DNA of 64,000 bases from Dictyostelium discoideum (GCA_000004695.1 CM000150.2:3168001-3232000), one strand, 5' to 3'; numbered from the stretch's first letter, positions 8,439-27,534 are shown. The notes: a model not told the origin generated them from the letters alone. Made by a program: numbers and translations.

Positions 8439-10074
8439 ATGGATAACCATTCAAGTTCATCCAATCCCTCTTCTTTATCATCGTCGTCATCGTCATCATC
8501 ATCATCATCATCATTTTTATCAGATCATGTCAAAAAAGAAGAACAAAATGGTTTGGATACCATTAAAGAAGAAATTGAAAATAAAATAGAAAATGAAGAA
8601 GAGGAGGAAAAGATAGAAGAGAAACCCATAGAAAAAGTGGAAGAAGAAAAAATCATAGTACAGAAAGAAGAGGAAGAAAAGATAGAAGAGGAACCAATAG
8701 AAAAAGAAGAAGAAAAAAAGGTAGAAGAAGAGAAATTTGAACAAGATAATATAAATACTACGGTTGAAGCAAAAACTCTAGAAACTTCAACAGAACCTAT
8801 AGCAACAGAGGTTGTAGATGAGAAGTCCATAACCTCTAATAATGAAAATTTAGAAGAACAACAAAAGGAAGATGTTATTTCAATACCACCACCTCAACAA
8901 GAACAACAAGAACAACAAGAACAACAAGAAAAACAAAAAGAAGAAACAAAACCAAGTATTAGAGAAGAAGTTAAAGAGAAAATTAAAGGTAAACTTAGTG
9001 AAATTAAAGAAGAAATTAAAGATATAAAAGAAGAGATTAAACATGTAATTAGAGAGGAAGTTACGGAGCCTATAATAGTGGTTGAAAATAATAATTCTCC
9101 ACCACCGCCACCACCACCACCATCAATTACAGTTCAAAGTTCATCACCAGTTTCATCACAAATTTCATCACCAGTTTCATCACCAGTTTCATCACCTAAA
9201 CCTTCTGTTACATTTAATGAAGATGGTAGAAAAAGGAAAGAAGGTGGCATAACAGCAAGTATCTCATCAGAGGATATTATGGCACTATCATCATCAACCT
9301 CTACTAATAATAAAGGTATTCCAAAAGAGAATAAAAGGACAGCTTCAACGATTTTAAGATCAAAATCATCACCAAATCCAGGTGCAAATAATCCAAATCA
9401 TAATAAAGATGGTAATAATTCATCATCATCATCATCATCAAATAATAATAGTGATAATAATAATAATAGTGATAATAATAGTAATAATAATAATATAAAT
9501 AATAATAATAGTAGTAGTAATAATTTAAATTATGATTCATCAGATATTGATACTGAAGCAATACCAAAATTTTATCATGATTTTAAAATACATAGAGGTA
9601 CATCATCATGTGTTTATTGTGGAGAGAATACAAGATTATGGTCAACAAGTTATAAATGTTTTTTTTGTGGTGTAGTTTGTCATAAGAAATGTTTAGATTC
9701 AATGAATACAATTCCATGTTCATCGGCTATTCATAATATTAAAGGTAAAAATCGTAGTCAAACTATTAGTGGTTATGCACCACCAAATTCTTTAGCATTA
9801 CAAGCTCCACCATACATTTCTGTTGCAAAACCATCTTCAATTACAAATTCAAGTTCAAAATCAACACCATCATTATTATCTGCACCACCTTCACAATCAA
9901 ATTCAAATAATTCATCACCAAATATATCAAGTAAAAGTAATCCAAATTCACCAATAACTACATCTGCAACAACCACAACAACAACAGCAACAATTTCATC
10001 ATTATCACCAACATCAATATCAAGTCCACCAATTGCATCAGAACAACCACCATCACCACTATTACAACAACAGC

Positions 10075-10142
<68 letters not shown>

Positions 10143-13124
10143 ATTTCAACAACACAATTACAAGATTTAAATAATACATCAGAGAAACCAGATGATGATA
10201 TGATTAATTTAATGTTTGATACATTAATGGTTGATTTAGATTTAAATTTACCAGCATCAAAATTATCAACAACTCAAAAATGGTTATTATTGGAACAAAA
10301 GTTTAAATTGAAAAAGGATGAACTTTTACCAGAATATTTTATAAATGCATTAAAAGAGCAACCAAGTAAATCAATTTTTCAATCATTAGTGGTAATTTTA
10401 CGTACCAATGTAACAAAGAATTGGATGTGTTCATTCGTTCAATTGAATGGTGTTGAGATTTTATTTGAAATCTTATCAAAATCAAAAAGAAAAGATTATA
10501 AAGATGATTGTTTAAGTTGTATTGGTAAAGTTATGTCAAATCCAATTGGCTTGAATTCAGTGGCACAATTACCAATGGCACCTAAAACAATTACCAAAGT
10601 CTTAAGATCAAAACAATATTGTATAAAAAGTAAAGCAATGGCAATTGAATTATTGACCGTTATGTTATTGGATAAATATGTTCCTGGTGGTTGTAGTTTG
10701 GTTCTTAAGGCGTTAACTAAAACCAAAGAAAAGAAAAGATTCTCTTTCTTTGTTAGATTCATCAAAGATAATGAATCATTGGAATTGAAAACCAAAGCAT
10801 TATGTTTTATCAATGTGTTAATCTTTGAAATGGAGGATATGAACGTACGTGTAAACATTAGAAGTGAATTCCTCAGACTTGGTCTATACACTTATCTTAG
10901 GGAAATAAAGAAAACAATCACTCATGAAAAAACATTGTTCACCCAAATAGAAATATTTGAAGAGATGATGAATGAAGATACACAAGAGTTGGATCTAAGA
11001 TTAGAAGATTTAAAGCGTCAACTTGGTATAGATATTGATGATGTTGATCAAGTTTTTAAAGCTTTGAAGAACACTACCTCCAAATCGGGTTTAAATAGAC
11101 AACTTTTAAATATCCTTCAAAATCTATTAGTCATTAAAGCTTGTGATCCAACTGATGGTGTAAAATACTTTATATTGTGTGATACTTTAGTCAAACAAAT
11201 TTCACTTCATAAGGGTGGTTTTGAAGATCCTTCAAATTTTGATTTCCGTGGTTTAATGGTTGGTCTTGAGAGTGCTACAGCTGAAGTAACCTTAAATAGA
11301 AAATTGGGTGAACTTGAGAAACAAAATATTGATAAAGCTATGAAGATTCAAGAACAAGATATCAATATAAAGAGTTTATTGGATTTATTAAAACAATTAA
11401 AAGATGGTGGTACTGCACCTGATGCTTCAATGATTAAAAAGATTGAAGAAATGATTAAACAAATGGAACCACCACCACCACCAATTTCTGTTAAATCACC
11501 AGATGATCCAAATAATGCCGCACCAATTGTTGTAGCACCAATCCCACCTCCTCCACCACCAATTTCTGGTGCTCCACCCCCACCCCCACCACCACCACCT
11601 CCAATGAAAGGAGGTGCAGGTCCACCACCCCCACCACCACCACCTGGTAAATTGGGAGCAAAGAAACCACCAGCAGGTGTACAATGTAGACCACCACCAA
11701 AAGTACCAAAACCATCACATCCATTGAAAGCTTATCAATGGGTTAAATTGGCACCAGTTAAAGTTAATGATTCATTATTCGATAAATTGGGACCAATGAA
11801 TGATATTAACCTACCATGGAATCAAATTGAAGAGGAATTTGCAGCCAAAGTAATCGTTAGAGAAAAGAAAGCAATAGTTAAACCAAAGGGGCCAACTCAA
11901 GTTATCGATCCAAAATTGGGTCAAAATATTAGTATTTTCCTTTCACAATTTAAAGGTGTTGAACCTAAACAACTCATAACTTATATTCAATCTATGGATG
12001 AATCAAAAATGTCAAGAGATCAAGTTAAACAAATTTCAAAACTTTTACCATCAAGAGAGGATTTAGCAGCTCTTAAAGAATTTTTACAAGCTGAAGATCG
12101 TTCAAAGTTAAGTATTGCCGATCAATATTGTATCGATATTGGTGCATTCCCATTCGCCTCTGAAAAGATTTCAATGTTTTTATTGAAATCTGAATTGAAA
12201 TCAAGATTGGATGAAGTTAAACCACAAATTGCCGCCGTGTCAGTTGCATGTGATGAAGTATACAAGAGTAAAAAGTTAATACGTATCATTGAAATCATTT
12301 TGGTTTTAGGTAATTTCATAAATTATGGTACACCAAGAGGTGATATTTCCGGTTATAAATTGGATAGTCTTATAAAATTAAGTGATACTAAATCCTCAGA
12401 TTTATCTTCAAACCTAATCAATACATTTGTAAAATATTGTCAAGAGAAAGAACCTAATCTATTAACATTTGCCGATGAATTACCATCATTAACAACAGCA
12501 AGAAAAACCATTTGGTCTGGTGTTGTAGCTGATGTTTCTTCAATTGGTCGTGATGTTCATTCTGTGAAACAAATCGTTGAAACACTTCAAAAATCAAATG
12601 AACCATTCAATCAATCAATCATTGATTTCCTTGCCACCGCTTCAACCGAAGTTGAAAAATTGAGAAAACTTTTAGAGAGTACTCAAGAGAATTTCAAAAA
12701 ACTTTGTAAATATTTCGCTGAAGAAGAGGGTAAATCACAACCTGAAGAATTTTTCGATATTTTTGGTCGTTTCATTACATTGTTTGAAAATGCTACCACC
12801 CAATTACAACAACAAAAAGAGGAACAGTTAAAGGAGGAAAAGAGATTACAACAAAAACAACAACGTCAAGAAAGAGCAGTTAGAAAATTAACCACCTCAA
12901 ATGAATCTGCTTCTGCCTCTCCAAACCATGCTAAATCCACTGATGATAAAAGTGATGAAGATGATGATATTGTTAATGATCTTTTAATGGCTGTTCGTGA
13001 TGGTGACGCTTTCAGACAAGCAAAAGGTAGAAGAAGAACAACTCATCAAATCGCTACCTCAAAAATGATTTCAAATAATTTAGATCCTTCTAAAATTTTA
13101 CCAACAAGTCCAAATAAAAATTAA
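8439..13124 (+). CDS. Formin (GBD/FH3-FH1-FH2) with an N-terminal C1 (phorbol-ester/DAG-type) zinc finger
   Basis: Single 1561-aa ORF. A C1 motif HDFKIHRGTSSCVYCGENTRLWSTSYKCFFCGVVCHKKCLDSMNTIPC sits at about 9570-9720. A GBD/FH3-like armadillo region follows. The FH1 region has poly-Pro runs (PPPPPISGAPPPPPPPPPPMKGGAGPPPPPPPPGK) at about 11460-11660. The FH2 domain follows (LKAYQWVKL..., GNFINYG, DAD-like basic C-terminus). Tracts of poly-Q(33) and poly-S/N are present. Confidence 0.9.
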
Positions 13125-13592
13125 TTTTTTTAATTAAAAATAATTTAATTTATAAATATAAAATAAAGTAAAATTAAAAATTTATGTATATATTAAAAGT
13201 ATTTAAAACAAGGTATTACTTTTTTATTAAAAAACTTAATAAAAAAAAAAAAAAAAAAAATTTTTATTGGTGTTTATTTAAAAAAAAAAAAATTAAATTG
13301 GTATTTGTTTAGAAAAATAAAAATAAAAATTTAGATTTCAGATATTTTAAATTTTATTCAAAAATTTTGATTGTTTCCCATTTTTTTTTTTTTTTTTTTT
13401 TTTGCGACCTCCGGAAACCTTAGAAAAATGTTTTTTTATATAACCTAACATTGACCACAACAATAAAAAAATAAAATGAAAAATAAAAATAACTTATTTT
13501 TTCATCTCAATTATTCAAGAGAAAAGTGATCCAAATGTTTATTTAAACCTTTTTTTTTTTTTTTTTTTTTTTTGAAAATAAGCAAATTAAAA

Positions 13593-15333
13593 ATGTCTAT
13601 ATTAGAAAATAATAATAATAATGAAAATATAAATAATATTCAGTATAAAAAAATAGATATAAAAACTCCTTTAGTCATAAATAGTGATTCTGAAATTGGA
13701 GAAAACTTTTTAACAAATGGCCAAGTTGAAATTAAAAAAAGGCCATTAAAAGAACACAAATATTTAAAACAAATTATTATTTTATTTTCCTTTTTACCTT
13801 TTATTATGATTCCCTCAATTTTATTTCAATTATATTTACCATCTTTTTTTACTGATTATGTAACTTTTAAATATCCTGATTATTCACTAGAAGAAATCCA
13901 ATCAAAAGCTGCATATTATAAATCATATTCTGATTCTCTTCCATATATATCTGCTTTATTATTTGGACCATTAATTGGGGTTTTATCTGATAAGTATGTT
14001 TTAATTTTTATTTTTTTTTTTTTTTTTATAAACAAAAGTTTAATTAATTTTTTGTTTTTAAAAATTAAAAAAAAAAAAAGGTATGGAAGAAAACCAATAT
14101 TTTTTGGGGCAGGTATTTTATTTATTCTTGATGCAATTGCAACATTGATATCTGTATTGACACATAACTTAATGTACCATTATGTTGTTCACACAATTGT
14201 TGGTGTAAATTCAGTTTCAAATGCTGCACTAACTGCATATATTTCCGATATTTCAGATGATGATCATATACCTATTCTATACTCATTATTGGGTGGAGTT
14301 TTTGGTGCAGGTATAATTTTAGGTCCATTGGTTTTTATTTTAATTAACCTCACATCAATTCCAAATATAACATTATATGTTATAGTTGGTTTACTTGCTG
14401 TTTGTATGGTAATTATTGCATTTTTAGATGAAAGTGTTGAAATTGCAAAAAAAAATAACAAAATTAAAATATCAAACACAACAACAAATCCAATTAAATT
14501 GGTTAAAAATCTTTTTACATCAAATACTTATTTTTCATTTATAGTTATAATATATTTATTAATTTCTTTTGCCACTTGTGATATTACTCTTATATTTTAT
14601 TATTATTGGTAATTAATTAAAATAATAATAATAATAATAAAAATAATAATAATAATAGCAATATTCTAATATTTTATTTTTATTTTAAAAATTAAATATA
14701 GTTCATTTGTTTATGAGTGGAGCCCAAAAGATAATTCAATATTCTTTGGTGGACTTGGTTTTATAATTATTGTATGGGGTGCAGTTATTAGCCCAATTCT
14801 ATTAAAATATTTTTGTAAGTAAATTAAATTAAATATAATAAAGTTTATTTACATTAATTAAAAAGATAATAAAAAAAGAAATTCTCATTAACAAAAAAAA
14901 AAAACCATAAGCTGAAAGAAAAATTATTTCAATAATGTTAATTTGTTGTTTTGGAGCTCATGTTATGTTTGTTTTTTCAGGATTCAGTCAATATTTATTT
15001 ATTTTAGGTGCAATGTTGGGATCACCACAAGTTAACAATTTAGTTCAAGCAATTATTTCTCAATTGACCCCACCAGAAATGCAAGCTACAATTCTAGTAG
15101 GTGCTCAATCAATTAGTTCAATTGCAAGCTTTTTAGGATCAATAGTTGTCAATGATATATTTATGTATTCCATTTCCAATAATATCTCTCATAAATTTCC
15201 TCAATTCGTATTTTTAATATTCGGAATTGTAATTGGTTTGACTACAATTGGTACAATCATCATTTTTAACTATTATAAAAAATCAAATAACTTTAAACAA
15301 AATCAAAAAAATAGTTACGAATCAATTAAATAA
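13593..15333 (+). CDS. Major facilitator superfamily (MFS) transporter, 4 exons
   Basis: ATG at 13593; the track ORF start at 13572 is a TTG. Exons are 13593..13993 (GTATGT donor), 14081..14608 (GTAATT donor), 14702..14814 (GTAAGT donor) and 14912..15333; all phases are compatible. Splicing restores the MFS signature GVLSDKYGRKP (loop 2-3 motif) across intron 1. Several hydrophobic transmembrane stretches are present; the total is about 490 aa. Confidence 0.7.
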
Positions 15334-15486: not shown

Positions 15487-17815
15487 TTAATAAATTTGTT
15501 TTGGTTTTCTAACTAAAACCATAACTTTGTTAACACCTTTTGGTAAATTTGATTTAAATTCAGAGCCAACTTCAAAGCCATGATGTTGAAAGAATTCAAT
15601 AGAGTTGTTTTCGAAAACTACTGTTCTTGTTTCAACACCATTATGATCAGCCCAATTTAAAACATTTTCAATCATATGAGAACCAATACCATTACCTCTG
15701 AAAATCTCAGAGGTACAACAATATGCTAAGAACCAATGATTACATGAAGAGGATGAGGAGGAGGAGGAACCTTTAAAAGTTTGTAAATTTGATGTACTTG
15801 TATTTGGATTATTATTATTATTTTGAGCCATTGATAATATATTATCATCAAAACGCATAAGATCTAAAATTAAACCAACTCTTTTTAAACCAATTTTAGT
15901 GACTAAACTAAGGGAACCCTTTATACAATCGGATAATCTAATCTCTTTCTTTTTCTCTGGATTTAACCAAACGAAACAACTAACCATTGTACCATCGATA
16001 GCGAAATAACCCCAAATACTGCAATTATAACTTGAGAGTACTTTTAAAATATATTTGTAAAGATGTTGAAGATGAGGTATTGAATGAGGATCCGATGGTG
16101 GAAATATATTGAAAAATCTTGGATCCTTCACAAAAGAAGTAGCCAAAAGTAATGAAGCCTCTTGAAAATGTGATTTATCCAATTGTTTTCTAATGCCTTT
16201 GATGGTATTCTCTCTTTTAATTACCACTCTTTCCTTCAATAAAGAGGTATCCATTTTTTGTAGGGTTTCAATAATTGATTCAATCGATGGTCTAAATGTT
16301 GGATTCTTTGAGATCATTGATAACACCAATGGTGCTAATTTTTCATATTTCTCTGGGAATGTCGAAAGGAATTGCATTGAATCGAAACGATCATTCAACA
16401 TATCCTCACCTAAATAGATACGATTATGTGATAATAGTTTCAATGTTATCAACTCATAGAATATACAACCCAATGAGAAAATATCAGTGGTTTTATCATA
16501 GGTTGAATTTAATATTTCTGGCGAAGAATAACAATATGTACCAACAGTCTCACTATGAATACTACCAGTATGATGAGCTGATTGAATTGCTAACCCAAAA
16601 TCACCAATCTTTAATTTATTTGAACCACTAATGAATATATTTTCAGATTTTAAATCTCTATGAATCATTGATGCCCTATGTAAGGCTTGTACTCCATAAC
16701 TTAAATCTAATAACCATTCAATTAATTGAGTTTGTTCAATTAAATAAATTGAATCAACACCTTTTTTAATTTCATTTGAATGTATAACATGTTCTTCAAT
16801 ATTTAAATTTGACGATGACGATGATGAATGAGTAGTGTTGGTAGTGGTAGTAGTAGTAGCAGCAGTAGTGTGGTTACTATTATCTTTTTTAAATATCTTT
16901 TTTGTTAAATCAACAGTCATCTTTACAATACATTTTCTTTCTTTTAAACTACATTTCTTTTTTCTTTCAGATTTTGATGATTTTCTTTGAGGTGATGTTA
17001 CTGGATGTTGTTGTGGTGATAATGGTGATGATGGTGATGATGGTGATGAAGGTGATGATGGTGATGATGGTGATGATGGTGATGCAGTAGTTGCAGTAGT
17101 TGTACCAGCAAGTGTTGGTGTTGATATTGAATGTCTATTATTTGGTGTTGTTGTTGTTATTGGTGGTGTAGTTGCATTTGTTGGTGATGTTGTACCATTA
17201 ACTAATGATGAAGATGAATGTGAATGTTGAATAGTATTATTATTATTATTCTCTAATAATAAAGCTGCTTCAAAATTAGTTGATGAAGATGAACTTGTTC
17301 TACTAGTTGTAGAATCAATATCACTACCAGTATATTCACTACCAAGATTTAATGATGATAACTCTGATCCTAATGTAACTGTATGATGATGTTGTGGCTC
17401 TGATAATTCAATTAAAAAATCTAATAAATCTCCCATCTCACAAAATTCCATCATAATTGTAATTTCAATTTGGTCACCAATTTGTGTCATAATTGCATCC
17501 TCAAATCTAACTGTATTTGGATGCACAATTCTAGCCAATGACATTGCCTAAAAATAATAATAATAATAATAATAAAAATATTTTTAAAAATTTAATATAA
17601 ATATTAGTTAAATAAAATCAAAGTTAGAAAAAAAAAAAAAAAAAAAAAAATTAAAACATTACCTCTTTTAAACCTTGATTTGCATCTTTTAAATTATCAA
17701 ATAGTCTTTTTTTACCAACATATTTAACACCATCTTTTTCATATAAAATTGCTTTTCCTTCACCTCCTGATCTAAGGTCTTTAATTAATTTATATGATGA
17801 TAATGGGTCCTCCAT
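15487..17815 (-). CDS. NEK-like Ser/Thr protein kinase fused to a C-terminal GNAT N-acetyltransferase domain
   Basis: Minus strand. Exon 1 is 17663..17815 (MEDPLSSYKLIKDLRSGGEGKAILYEKDGVKYVGKKRLFDNLKDANQGLKE: glycine loop plus the beta3 lysine), with a GTAATG donor. The intron is 17549..17662. Exon 2 is 15487..17548 and begins AMSLARIVHPNTVRF..., carrying HRDLKSENIF, DFGLA and GTYCYSSPE. A low-complexity insert of about 250 aa (S/T/N-rich) lies inside the kinase domain. The C-terminus has GNAT motif A, FRGNGIGSHMIENVLNWADHNGVETRTVVFENNSIEFFQHHGFEV. Kinase and GNAT lie in one uninterrupted reading frame. Confidence 0.8.
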
Positions 17816-18035: not shown

Positions 18036-18172
18036 TAAACGAAGGGGGCACAAGATTCTTCTTTTGGTGGGAAAAAAAAACTATTATGTAGATCTTATAA
18101 TAATGGGGTGAGATTTGTGTGTGTTTATCAATTCTGACAAATAAATATCGTGATAAATAAAATAATAATAAC

Positions 18173-18273
<101 letters not shown>

Positions 18274-19027: not shown

Positions 19028-19843
19028 TTAATTTAAATTAAAAAATACTTTTGTATTATTAAAAGTTTGTAAAGCCATATCTTTTTCAGAGATATTATAA
19101 CATTGTGCTAAAGTTTTTAAAACATATGGCAAGAGAGAAGGTTCATTACGTATGAATTTTGAACGTGGGTCATTTTGTTTTGGTTTATCGATTGCATTTA
19201 TATTGTGAGGAGTCATATATGGACAATCAGTTTCAATCATTAAACGATCCAATGGGATGATACCAGATTTTAAGATTGCTCTTAATTGTTCACCTCTTTT
19301 ATCATGACCAATCACACCAGTGAAACCAATATAGAATCCCATTGAAACATACATTCTTGCTTCAGCTTCAGTACCTGTGAAACAGTGAATTACAGATTTT
19401 GGCATTGTGCCATCTTTTACATACTTTTCAACGACAGTGCAAAATTGTTTATGTGCATCTCTCTCGTGAATGAATAATGGTAATTTAAACTCTATTCCTA
19501 ATTGGATTTGTCTATCAAACATTTCGATTTGAGTTGCATGTGAGCTGAAATTACGATTGAAATCCAAACCACATTCACCAACTGATTTAACAACATTTAA
19601 ATTACTCTTTATCAATTGTCTCAACTCATCTTGTGCTTTCTCACCACTACCACCATTCATTTTCAATGTTTCCTCTGCTGAATGTGGATGAACTCCAACC
19701 GTTGAAAATAGTTCAACTAATCCTTTCTTTCTCTTATTACTCTCAATTAATTGTATTGCTTTAATTGATGATTTAACTGATGTACCTGTAATTATAATTT
19801 TTGTAACACCTTTCTAAAAAAATTAAAAAATTAAAAATTTTAA

Positions 19844-23967: not shown

Positions 23968-24647
23968 TTTAGATATAAATTATTAAATCAATATATTGAA
24001 GATTTTAAAGATAATTTAATAAATGATTTTTTAGTAACAGTAGAGATATTAGCTAGTTGGTATATACCACAAAAGGATTATTCAATTGTTAAATTTATAA
24101 ATTGTTTTGGAGAAATGTTAGATTCAACGATTATAGAGAGTTTTTCATACATTTTCAATAAGACTATAAAGAAAGAGGATGATTGGTCAATTTCATTCAT
24201 TCAAGCGGCACTTGGATCCAATGAAGAATTTAAGAGACAAGTGATGTGTTTAAATGATGAATTAATTCAAGATAGATATGATCAATCATTGTATAGTATA
24301 ATGCATCCAATTAAATTTGACAATGTTAGAGAGTTTATTCTAATCTATAGTAGAGATGAAAATTATTTTGAACCACAAGAATTTTGGTATCTAATTTGTA
24401 AATACGATGCAATTGCAATCACTCAACATATAATCAACAATAATATAGCCGAAGAGGATCTATCCAAAAGATCAGGTAAAACCTATAATTCAAACTTGTC
24501 TGAAAATCCATTAGAAATCAATCCTCTAAGTTTATTAGAAATTTGTTCTGCAAATTTCTCTCATAAAATTGCATCAATCTTATTTCAATTTTATGATTTT
24601 AAAGATTCAATGCCAACAAGATTTAGTTTAAGAGGTGTTTTTAAACC

Positions 24648-24701
<54 letters not shown>

Positions 24702-27534
24702 AGATAAAGATGAAAAAGATAAAGAAAATAATAATAATAATGTAATATCACAACAATTTCAATATTTTAGAGTTTTAGATGTAAATTGTTATTTTAATGA
24801 TGTAATTAAAAAGAGAGCACCAATATTTATAGATTTAATGACACAATCAAATATTTATTTAAATACAGAGGTTGGTGAAGGATCGGATGAAAATGTTGAT
24901 ACTCATGAATCGATTTATTCATTTCAGAATAGTACCGAGTATTTAGCTATCAATTCAAATAGTATTCATAGATTGAAGAGGTCATCGATATCTTTACTTT
25001 CAAAGGTATTGGAATTTAATGATCGTGATACTTTGATATCGCTATTAAAGAATTTGACACAGGGTGGTTGTACATTATGCAAGGACCTAATTGACGAAAA
25101 ACAATTACTAATTACAATTAGTAGACCCCAATATCACCAAAGTATACAGATTCTACACCAAAATGGGTATACCATCATACCGAAATACCAACTACGTGAT
25201 CCTTACATCTTTTTTGCAGGCTCCAAACAAATCTTACAATATCTATTGGAAATTCACACAAATTCCCTCTCGGAGACTATAGATATCAGACACTGGATTC
25301 AGGCGATCATGAGTGCAGGTCAGTATAGCTCAGAGACTGAATTCTTTCAATACTATCCAAAGATTCAAGAATTATCATTACGCGATAAATATTCAAGAAC
25401 TTTAAATATTTTAGAATTACAATATATCCTTGGCCATATCGAAGGTATAGAATTCTTACTTGAGAAATATTTAGATTTCACTAAACCCTATCATTTAGAT
25501 AATCAAGAACTTTTAGAAATTTTCGATGTAACTTTTGTTCAAAAAAAAGATATTAGAACTGAAGAATCTTTAAAAGCTGAAAAAGATTTATTAGAACAAG
25601 AAGAAAATGAAAAAAAACGTTTAAAAGAAAAAAGAAAAAAAGAAGAAAAAGAAAAAAAAAAACAACAAAATTTAAAACAAAAATCTTTAATAACTAATAA
25701 TACTACTACTACTACTACTACTACACCAATACCAATTACAGTACCAATACCAACACAAACACAAACACCAACACAAACACCAACACAAACACCAATACCA
25801 ACACCAATACCAACAACACCAATACCAACAACACCAATACCAATACCAATTCAATTGACACCAACAACACCAAAAACACCAAAAACACCAAAAACACCAA
25901 AAACACCAACAACACCAAAAACACCAATAACACCCAAAACACCAAAAAATTCTACTTTAGATAAACAAACAATTTCAACACCAAAAACACCACCACCTTT
26001 ATCAGTAAATACAACACCAATAACACCATCACCACCACCACAAACTATAGCTACAACAATAACAACAACAACAACAACACCAAAAACAACAAAAACAACA
26101 ACAACATCAAAAATACCGACATTAATAATAGAATTAAATAAATATGATATTTCAATTGGTAAATTTAAATTTAGTAGAAAAGATGAATTTATAATTGGTA
26201 GAGGATCAAATGGTACATTAGTTTTTAAAGGTATTTGGAATGATAGAATACCAGTTGCAATTAAACAAATGCATAAAGCTTTTAATCCATTAATTAGTAA
26301 AGAGATTGAAGTATTAATTACATTAACAAATAAGAATTGTAATAACATCGTAAGATATATTGATCAAGAAGAAGATGATATGTTTGTTTATTTAGGTTTA
26401 ACATTATGTAATGGTTCTTTACAAAATTTAGTTGAAAAAGATTTAGAAATTAATTTAATATCAACATCAAATAATGAAAATAATAATAATAATAAATTAA
26501 AGAATTTTATTGGTTCAGAATTAAGATTATTAGAATTAATTAAAGATATTGTTTATGGTATTCAATTTTTACATCAACAAGGTATAGTTCATAATGATTT
26601 AAATCCAAGGAATATTTTAATTAAAGATGATAGATTCATTATATCGGATTTAGGGTTAAGTAAAATGGAAGTAACTTCGTCATACTCATTTACGATGCAT
26701 GCTCCAACTGGTCAAGAAGGTTTTCATCCGGCTGAAGTACTATTAGAGAAACGTAAAACTAAATCTGTTGATATCTTTTCAATGGGTTGTATTCTATTTT
26801 ATTTAATGACTGGTGGTCAACATCCATTTGGTGATAAATTCTTTAGAATGGCTAATATTTTAACAGATAAACCAATTCTAGAACCATTGAAACATAATTT
26901 AGTAGCATGTGATTTAATTAGTCAAATGATATCAAAAAATGAATCTGATAGACCAACTACTGAAAATATACTTTTACATCCATTCTTTTGGAATCATGAA
27001 AAGAAAGTTAAATTCATTGATGCTTCTTTAAATTTATTTAAAGATTCAAATGGTTTATTCACTTCAAAATTAAATAAATTAATTAATCAATTTCAAGATA
27101 CTGATGGTGTTAATACAACAAGCACACCATTTCTTTCGAAACCATGGAATCAATTAATTGATCCAACTTTAATTGAACATATTACAAATAAACAAAATCA
27201 ATTAAGTGGTGGTAGTAGTATTGGAAATAATAATAATAATAGTTTGACATTAAGTGGTAAAAAATTTTATTTTTATGATTATTCTCAAGTAAAAGATTTA
27301 GTACGTTGTATTAGAAATACAATACAACATCATAAAGAGATTCAAAGATTAATTTCACAATCACCATCATCATCAAATAAACAAGAAGTGTTGGATTGTT
27401 TAGAGAGTCAAGAATTAGTTTTATCTTATTTTGAAGAAAAAGTTCCCGACCTTTTACTCTTTCTTTATCAAAAGTTTAAAAAACATTTGGATTCAAAATC
27501 CTTAATTTATTTTAATGATTTAATTATTAAATAA
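22841..27534 (+). CDS. IRE1/RNase L-like protein: large N-terminal region + (pseudo)kinase domain + KEN endoribonuclease domain (paralog A)
   Basis: Exon 1 is 22841..23796 with a GTATAT donor. The intron is 23797..23972 and contains an (ATT)~29 tract. Exon 2 is 23973..27534. The kinase domain (about 26130-27000) has [18 protein letters not shown], a catalytic loop HNDLNPRN in place of HRDLKPxN, and DLG in place of DFG. The KEN domain has [19 protein letters not shown], and a motif [16 protein letters not shown] matching the IRE1/RNase L catalytic block RNxxxHH. A Thr/Pro-rich linker (TPK repeats) precedes the kinase. Confidence 0.8.
23878..23966. repeat. (ATT)~29 intronic microsatellite in kinase-KEN paralog A
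   Basis: Lies inside intron 23797..23972. Confidence 0.85.

Follow-up and report, generated by a model that had tools for sequence, protein, structure and literature searches.

What purpose might an acetyltransferase-like domain serve at the end of a eukaryotic protein kinase? The question is raised by a gene on the minus strand of a 64,000 nt stretch of Dictyostelium discoideum DNA (GCA_000004695.1, CM000150.2:3168001–3232000), here called the window, with positions counted from its first letter. A kinase of NEK-like type fused to a GNAT acetyltransferase domain had been predicted from the sequence at 15487–17815, and both the coordinates and the fusion were correct. The start codon (ATG) lies at 17815 and the stop codon at 15487–15489, and the product of 737 aa is encoded by two exons (17815–17663 and 17547–15487). 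The GNAT domain is of the small-molecule-amine (puromycin-acetyltransferase-like) branch. It keeps its predicted coenzyme A (CoA) binding loop, and in it and its fused relatives the residues at the catalytic positions of puromycin N-acetyltransferase (PAC) are replaced.

The kinase encoded at the locus is DDB0229344 of D. discoideum, a member of the Dicty8 family; the first 399 residues of the product are the 399-aa sequence given for this entry in a supplementary table of the kinome of Goldberg et al. 2006 (PMC1420674). The entry is placed there in group Other, family Dicty8, with the label 'kd' for a complete kinase domain and with the motifs VGKK, HRDLKSEN and DFG. The second and only other Dicty8 member of that study, DDB0216331, is DDB_G0279719, which was recovered here as P0026 and is the sole D. 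discoideum paralogue. The legend of supplementary figure S3 of the kinome paper includes 'Acetyltransf' among the kinase accessory domains, which indicates that the fusion was already drawn in 2006; the main text makes no mention of a kinase-GNAT fusion. Literature searches with DDB0229344, DDB_G0279719 and the Dicty8 name found no paper studying the gene or the family, and a 2022 review of bifunctional kinases (PMC9138534) does not include the Dictyostelium kinase-GNAT proteins. The gene and its domain composition have thus been public since 2006, and are rare rather than new.

Two open reading frames (ORFs) make up the gene, one of 54 codons from 17815 and one of 685 codons ending at 15487. 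Between them lies a very AT-rich intron of 115 nt (17548–17662, minus strand; GTAATG...TTTTTAG), which interrupts the kinase N-lobe and uses the sole GT..AG donor and acceptor pair that gives an open frame. Exon 1 (17663–17815, minus strand; aa 1–51) carries the Gly-rich loop S-G-G-E-G-K-A, the beta3 lysine Lys35 (codon 17711–17713) and the alphaC glutamate Glu51, while exon 2 (15487–17547, minus strand; aa 52–737 and the stop codon) encodes the remainder of the kinase and the GNAT domain in full. The junction (KE/AMSLAR, the slash marking the splice) is conserved among orthologues and is identical in P0121 (729 aa), an independently annotated protein of a second D. discoideum strain; the exon 1 N-terminus is identical in P0121 and in the kinome entry. 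The single reading frame of the original prediction therefore does not extend over the whole protein, but it does hold where the kinase C-lobe meets the GNAT domain. Both lie within one stop-free exon (the 685-aa ORF), so that joining them requires no splicing. The window is very AT-rich (GC 14–33%) with short AT-rich introns, as expected for Dictyostelium.

The GNAT domain occupies aa 503–737 (15490–16194, minus strand), with the predicted order b1-a1-a2-b2-b3, a helical insert, a disordered loop and b4-a3-b5-a4-b6-b7. Pfam models match aa 654–711, namely Acetyltransf_1 (PF00583, 30.1 bits against a cut-off of 20.7) and Acetyltransf_7 (PF13508, 27.5 bits against 27). The kinase domain is matched by Pkinase (PF00069, E 1e-35), so that each of the Pfam families proposed as a check on the prediction scores above its threshold. 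An NCBIfam scan gave generic GNAT matches only, all of them below threshold. When the C-terminal regions of 20 dictyostelid proteins were aligned, the mean column identity was 43% and a number of residues were near-invariant, indicating that the GNAT domain is under selection. An AlphaFold2 model built from this 20-sequence alignment (predicted local distance difference test, pLDDT, 82.8; predicted template modelling score, pTM, 0.80) shows the complete GNAT topology, including the mixed beta-sheet and the beta4-alpha3-beta5 CoA-binding core of GNATs, with the helical insertion before beta4. The disordered loop, rich in Asn and Ser (aa 630–651), lies between the helical insert and beta4.

By structure comparison with Foldseek, the top match of the GNAT model was PAC (PDB 7k09; E 4e-11). 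PAC could be aligned over 189 of 194 residues. The family profile matched PAC as well (E 2.3e-8), and its match to 2qec, a GNAT of Corynebacterium glutamicum (E 1.3e-11, profile positions 14–190), was full-length. These full-length matches place the domain in the branch that acetylates small-molecule amines. A Gcn5 (histone acetyltransferase) or N-terminal acetyltransferase type was considered and rejected; the match of NAA50 is limited to the generic C-terminal half (E 6e-6), whereas those of PAC and 2qec run the full length. Compared with PAC, 2qec and their relatives, the Dictyostelium domain differs in being fused to a kinase and in having the additional disordered poly-Asn/Ser loop.

For the comparison of active-site positions, PAC was aligned to the family profile together with 35 fused GNATs and 126 stand-alone relatives. 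The stand-alone comparison set numbers 122, since four short sequences among the 126 have fused-type residues and were excluded. The loop that would hold the CoA pyrophosphate (R668-G-N-G671-I-G673; 15682–15699, minus strand) fits the P-loop consensus of GNATs, Q/R-x-x-G-x-G/A (PMC4964394), so that the RGNGIG stretch of the acetyl-CoA motif A noted in the original prediction is intact. In the fused proteins, the first position is Arg or Gln in 35/35, the first glycine is kept in 31/35, and the last position is Gly or Ala in 35/35.

The positions expected to carry out the chemistry tell a different story. Tyr171 of PAC, on alpha4, is the general acid, and the Y171F mutant retains only 3.6% of activity (PMC7933286). 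The profile alignment places Phe704 here (15589–15591, minus strand), and this position is Tyr in 110/122 stand-alone proteins and in none of the 35 fused ones, all of which have Phe or Leu. The acidic residue on beta5, Glu161 of PAC, is a puromycin ligand and a candidate general base; the same alignment places Val694 here (15619–15621, minus strand), with Glu or Asp in 96/122 stand-alone proteins and a hydrophobic residue in every fused one. A third position, the beta4 tyrosine that aligns with Tyr73 of NAA50 (a catalytic residue of that enzyme), is Tyr in 88/122 stand-alone proteins but in only 2/35 fused. The beta5 motif as a whole is changed from C-Y-L-E-T in PAC, 2qec and the relatives of about 200 aa to C-K-T-h-x-F (h, hydrophobic) in fused GNATs. 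Near-invariant residues specific to the fused clade are R528, W563, Y660, W683 and Lys/Arg692. The replacements probably trace to one or a few ancestral events, and with such shared ancestry the 35/35 counts are to be read as long-term retention and not as 35 independent events. Taken together, the alignments indicate a domain held under purifying selection, the active-site chemistry of which appears to have been rewritten.

The kinase domain gives Pfam matches in two stretches that flank an insert (Pkinase, 123.8 bits against a cut-off of 31.7). The part of the N-lobe beyond exon 1, together with the hinge and alphaD, lies at aa 52–103 (17392–17547, minus strand), as delimited by alignment with NEK1 and NEK2, by the family alignment and by the orthologue model described below. 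The C-lobe (aa 317–482; 16255–16752, minus strand) contains HRDLKSEN (16639–16662), DFG (16594–16602) and GTYCYSSPE. The kinase and GNAT motifs quoted in the original prediction are all present in the 737-aa product. The catalytic residues K35, E51, H347-R-D349, N354, D367-F-G and S-P-E395 make up a complete set, and the corresponding lysine, glutamate, HRD, asparagine, DFG and G-T-x-x-Y-x-x-P-E are kept in nearly all family members. A pseudokinase reading of DDB0229344 was rejected, as every catalytic motif is present, and by its motifs the kinase looks active. Motif drift is seen in some relatives, with HLD in P0026 (DDB_G0279719), HLD and DLG in P0133, and DLG in P0265; judging from these motifs, some of the family may have moved towards a pseudokinase state with the GNAT domain retained.

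The solved kinases nearest to the single sequence, with its insert removed, are NEK1 (109 bits) and NEK2 (101 bits), the others scoring at most 77 (GCN2, PKR and NEK7, about 76). With a profile of 13 family kinase domains, the order was NEK1 (188 bits), NEK2 (185), GCN2 (171), PKR (148) and NEK7 (145). DDB0229344 shares with NEK1 and NEK2 an N-terminal kinase domain, the G-K-A-I-L that follows the Gly loop, HRD-x-K-S-x-N-I-F, D-F-G-L/I-A and the S-P-E segment. It differs from them in the insert of 213 aa between alphaD and alphaE, and in its tail, which is a GNAT domain where those of NEKs are coiled-coil, RCC1 or other; the family's paralogue group 1 also lacks the first glycine of the Gly loop. 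The activation-loop threonine of NEKs (T175 of NEK2, T162 of NEK1) falls opposite Glu384 of DDB0229344 in the alignment, and opposite Gly in most relatives, and the published classification sets DDB0229344, as Other/Dicty8, apart from the four Dictyostelium NEKs (PMC1420674). The NEK type originally proposed is therefore right as to the nearest solved kinases but not as to classification or activation loop, and 'NEK-like' seems a fair name for the nearest class without implying NEK membership.

A look for the same architecture in other Amoebozoa had been proposed as a check. The fusion proved to be conserved in more than 20 species, and it was found in more than 20 dictyostelid proteins, from Dictyostelium, Tieghemostelium, Polysphondylium, Acytostelium, Cavenderia and Heterostelium, which fall into two paralogue groups, and in Physarum. 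An exhaustive search of 1.84 billion representative sequences with the GNAT profile returned 544 proteins at E ≤ 1e-10, nearly all of them stand-alone and about 200 aa in length. The long matches include kinase-GNAT fusions, namely an ORF of the Physarum polycephalum transcriptome and several metagenomic proteins, and these share the distinctive kinase N-lobe signature of the family. The Physarum ORF, with both domains, is direct evidence that one mRNA can hold both in a relative. A search of a collection of 5.8 billion proteins with a profile of the GNAT alignment gave no matches, but as it also missed the family itself it was uninformative.

A neighbour-joining tree built from the GNAT domains has one split that sets 34 of the 35 fused proteins apart. 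The only other sequences on their side are the four short ones, with fused-type residues, that were left out of the stand-alone comparison set. The fused GNATs form essentially one clade, and the kinase-GNAT family is older and wider than the 'Dictyostelium-specific' label of Dicty8.

Several of the relatives have features of their own. The metagenomic fusion clade occurs in metagenomes only, and its contig is clearly eukaryotic; the gene for P0133 lies on an ENA metagenome scaffold of 6248 nt (L001), a compact and apparently intron-poor eukaryotic contig, with a mitochondrial-carrier gene on one side and a DUF383/DUF384/zf-MYND gene on the other. Members of this environmental clade have a conserved C-terminus (...VDL). 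In P0126 (899 aa, JGI metagenome), a TKL/Tyr-like kinase domain comes after a fused-type GNAT. The first 130 aa of this protein, judged by eye, resemble a degenerate kinase C-lobe and, if they are one, the order in this protein would be kinase remnant, GNAT, second kinase. P0196 (921 aa) and P0235 (996 aa) carry a related GNAT near residues 590–840, with no kinase domain detected, and their GNATs, also judged by eye, apparently lack the general-acid tyrosine. Three kinase-GNAT paralogues of Polysphondylium violaceum, P0006, P0008 and P0011 (CYY_001732, CYY_001731 and CYY_001730), have consecutive locus tags on one 77.8-kb contig, pointing to local tandem expansion.

Given that the PAC-type catalytic residues are replaced and the P-loop is kept, the domain is more likely to sense or bind a metabolite than to acetylate efficiently. 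The reading that we favour, to which we would assign roughly even confidence, is that the GNAT domain binds CoA or acyl-CoA and regulates the kinase in cis, and is at most a weak acetyltransferase. On this proposal, the GNAT part would bind acetyl-CoA, CoA, another acyl-CoA or a small amine, and would then act in cis as a sensing, regulatory or targeting module for the kinase, by which metabolic state would be linked to phosphorylation. Whatever acetyltransferase activity it had would be weak, and no longer efficient in the ancestral manner. The gene structure, both folds, the motifs, their conservation and distribution and the residue replacements were read directly from the data; the binding of CoA, a loss of catalytic efficiency and control over the kinase would be steps beyond them. 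The original prediction had offered either a coupling of phosphorylation with N-acetylation or a GNAT fold serving as a regulatory or substrate-docking module, and it is the second option that fits better, the first being less favoured since the catalytic residues are replaced in 35/35.

Several points weigh against the favoured proposal. Around 38% of characterised GNATs have no tyrosine general acid, and some use water (PMC4964394); the Y171F mutant of PAC is weak and not dead (PMC7933286); and PAC itself acts on puromycin without needing a general base. A different catalytic set might be made up of the newly conserved Tyr660, which lies on beta4 close to the bulge, and Lys/Arg692, in which case a changed substrate would fit the pattern as well as lost catalysis does. 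CoA binding is itself a deduction from the motif, and the model of a full-length orthologue predicts no contact between the domains, so that allosteric coupling is conjectural. The main rival view is that the protein is a bifunctional enzyme, its GNAT part being an active acetyl- or acyltransferase with a remodelled site and a new acceptor. This acceptor might be a small amine, a lysine or the N-terminus of a protein, or else the kinase itself or its substrates. We regard this as a serious possibility, if on balance not a probable one. The intact P-loop and the strongly conserved GNAT core speak for it, the pocket residues found only in fused proteins (Y660, K/R692, R528, W563 and W683) suggest selection rather than decay, the many active GNATs that lack a tyrosine general acid (PMC4964394) provide precedent, and the nearest folds are all genuine amine acetyltransferases. 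Set against this, replacement throughout the clade affects all three of the positions that hold catalytic Tyr or Glu in the relatives, and in PAC the equivalent single change abolishes about 96% of activity (PMC7933286); the sequence also suggests no acceptor.

The fold might instead be a docking or scaffold surface without useful CoA binding, providing the kinase with a means of protein-protein interaction, substrate recruitment or dimerisation. This is unlikely, as pseudo-GNATs that do not bind CoA typically lose the Gln/Arg of the P-loop, the inactive central GNAT of Eis being one example (PMC4964394), whereas the R/Q, G and G/A positions are kept in nearly every fused member over very long divergence. 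That the gene is an artefact, with adjacent kinase and GNAT genes misread as one or with the GNAT part a decaying remnant, is very improbable, because a stop-free ORF of 685 aa crosses the junction, the architecture is repeated in more than 20 dictyostelid proteins of both paralogue groups, in the Physarum transcriptome ORF and in metagenomic eukaryotes, and the GNAT part is conserved with invariant residues. In its broader form, the favoured proposal would be that a pseudo-acetyltransferase domain able to bind acyl-CoA exerts control in cis over a NEK-related kinase family of Dictyostelia, Myxogastria and at least one further lineage of eukaryotes; this is a real possibility, though less likely than not.

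A classic way of wiring a metabolite or second messenger to phosphorylation is to attach a ligand-binding domain or a second enzymatic domain to a kinase. If the broader proposal is true, kinases of this family would be direct, hard-wired sensors that couple protein phosphorylation to the acetyl-CoA (nutritional) state, as might happen when social amoebae switch from growth to starvation. With a genetically tractable host and a single paralogue, readout of acyl-CoA by the kinase could be tested quickly. Prior cataloguing of the gene and its architecture limits the surprise; what is new here is the finding of NEK1 and NEK2 as the nearest solved kinases, the wider distribution, and the clade-wide catalytic replacements. 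The record is corrected in two respects, in that Dicty8 is not Dictyostelium-specific and that its GNAT belongs to the puromycin-acetyltransferase-like small-molecule branch with catalytic residues replaced.

We found, among characterised eukaryotic protein kinases, none in which a GNAT fold serves as a ligand-binding or second-enzyme module, and none paired with a PAC-like GNAT. A GNAT and a kinase of protein-kinase-like fold are joined in one polypeptide in AAC(6')-Ie/APH(2'')-Ia, the aminoglycoside-modifying enzyme of Gram-positive bacteria. This differs from DDB0229344 in being bacterial, in having the GNAT first, and in that its kinase is an aminoglycoside phosphotransferase and not a eukaryotic protein kinase; both of its halves are proven small-molecule enzymes that act on the same antibiotic. 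Human O-GlcNAcase has a C-terminal pseudo-histone-acetyltransferase domain without acetyl-CoA-binding determinants, whereas the P-loop is intact in DDB0229344; the two domains are joined to different enzymes and are not specifically related in sequence. The review of bifunctional kinases (PMC9138534) lists TAF1 and CIITA as single proteins with both Ser/Thr kinase and acetyltransferase activity, but these are nuclear transcription factors of unrelated architecture and do not combine a canonical eukaryotic protein kinase with a PAC-like GNAT.

The kinase insert (aa 104–316; 16753–17391, minus strand) was placed by the split Pfam match, the alignments and the orthologue model. It is rich in Ser, Thr, Asn and Pro, as originally described, and is predicted to be disordered, but at about 213 aa it is shorter than the approximately 250 aa first estimated, and its position is between helices alphaD and alphaE of the kinase rather than simply between the N-lobe and the catalytic loop. 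Its length varies among species and among strains. A 9-nt tandem repeat of 7.9 copies (17014–17084, minus strand) encodes an (SPS)n run inside the insert, and this run is about 13 aa shorter in the D. discoideum strain proteins P0002 and P0121. In the same two proteins, the poly-Ser run of the GNAT loop (aa 643–652) is longer. The insert also contains a conserved basic motif (E-R-K-C-I-V-K-M-T-V-D-L-T-K-K-I-F, aa 254–270; 16891–16941, minus strand), for which a helix is predicted with low confidence in the orthologue model; this one motif (ERKCIVKMTVDLTKKIF) is conserved across paralogue group 1 of Dictyostelia.

The full-length structure model was that of the Dictyostelium citrinum orthologue, P0001. 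Both domains are folded in this model, and the residues equivalent to the insert (101–293) have a pLDDT of about 30. Between the domains lies a linker, which corresponds to aa 483–502 of DDB0229344 (16195–16254, minus strand); it is disordered in the model, with a pLDDT below 50 at the equivalent residues 462–475 of the orthologue. The whole-protein pTM is 0.45, and a fixed interface is neither predicted nor ruled out. On this model, the GNAT domain would be tethered to the kinase by a short flexible linker.

Elsewhere in the window, a 1561-aa ORF on the plus strand (8439–13124) encodes a formin of the Diaphanous type, with GBD, FH3 and FH2 domains and, at the N-terminus, a C1 (phorbol-ester/diacylglycerol) domain. 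Two plus-strand ORF pieces at 13572–14612 and 14935–15333 both match the Major Facilitator Superfamily, and are probably one transporter gene split by an intron; its end is about 150 nt from the stop codon of the kinase gene, and the two genes are convergent. Upstream of the kinase start, the sequence between 17904 and 18270 is nearly pure simple sequence, with two runs of A (72 and 30 nt) and, at 18156–18270, an (AAT)n microsatellite of 38.7 copies. A TatD-related DNase/hydrolase ORF on the minus strand (19028–19666; Pfam E 6e-47) is probably one exon of a larger gene. A 1139-aa ORF on the plus strand (24115–27534) has a protein-kinase domain followed by Ribonuc_2-5A, the IRE1-type kinase/RNase architecture, and is a second kinase gene within 7 kb of the kinase-GNAT gene.

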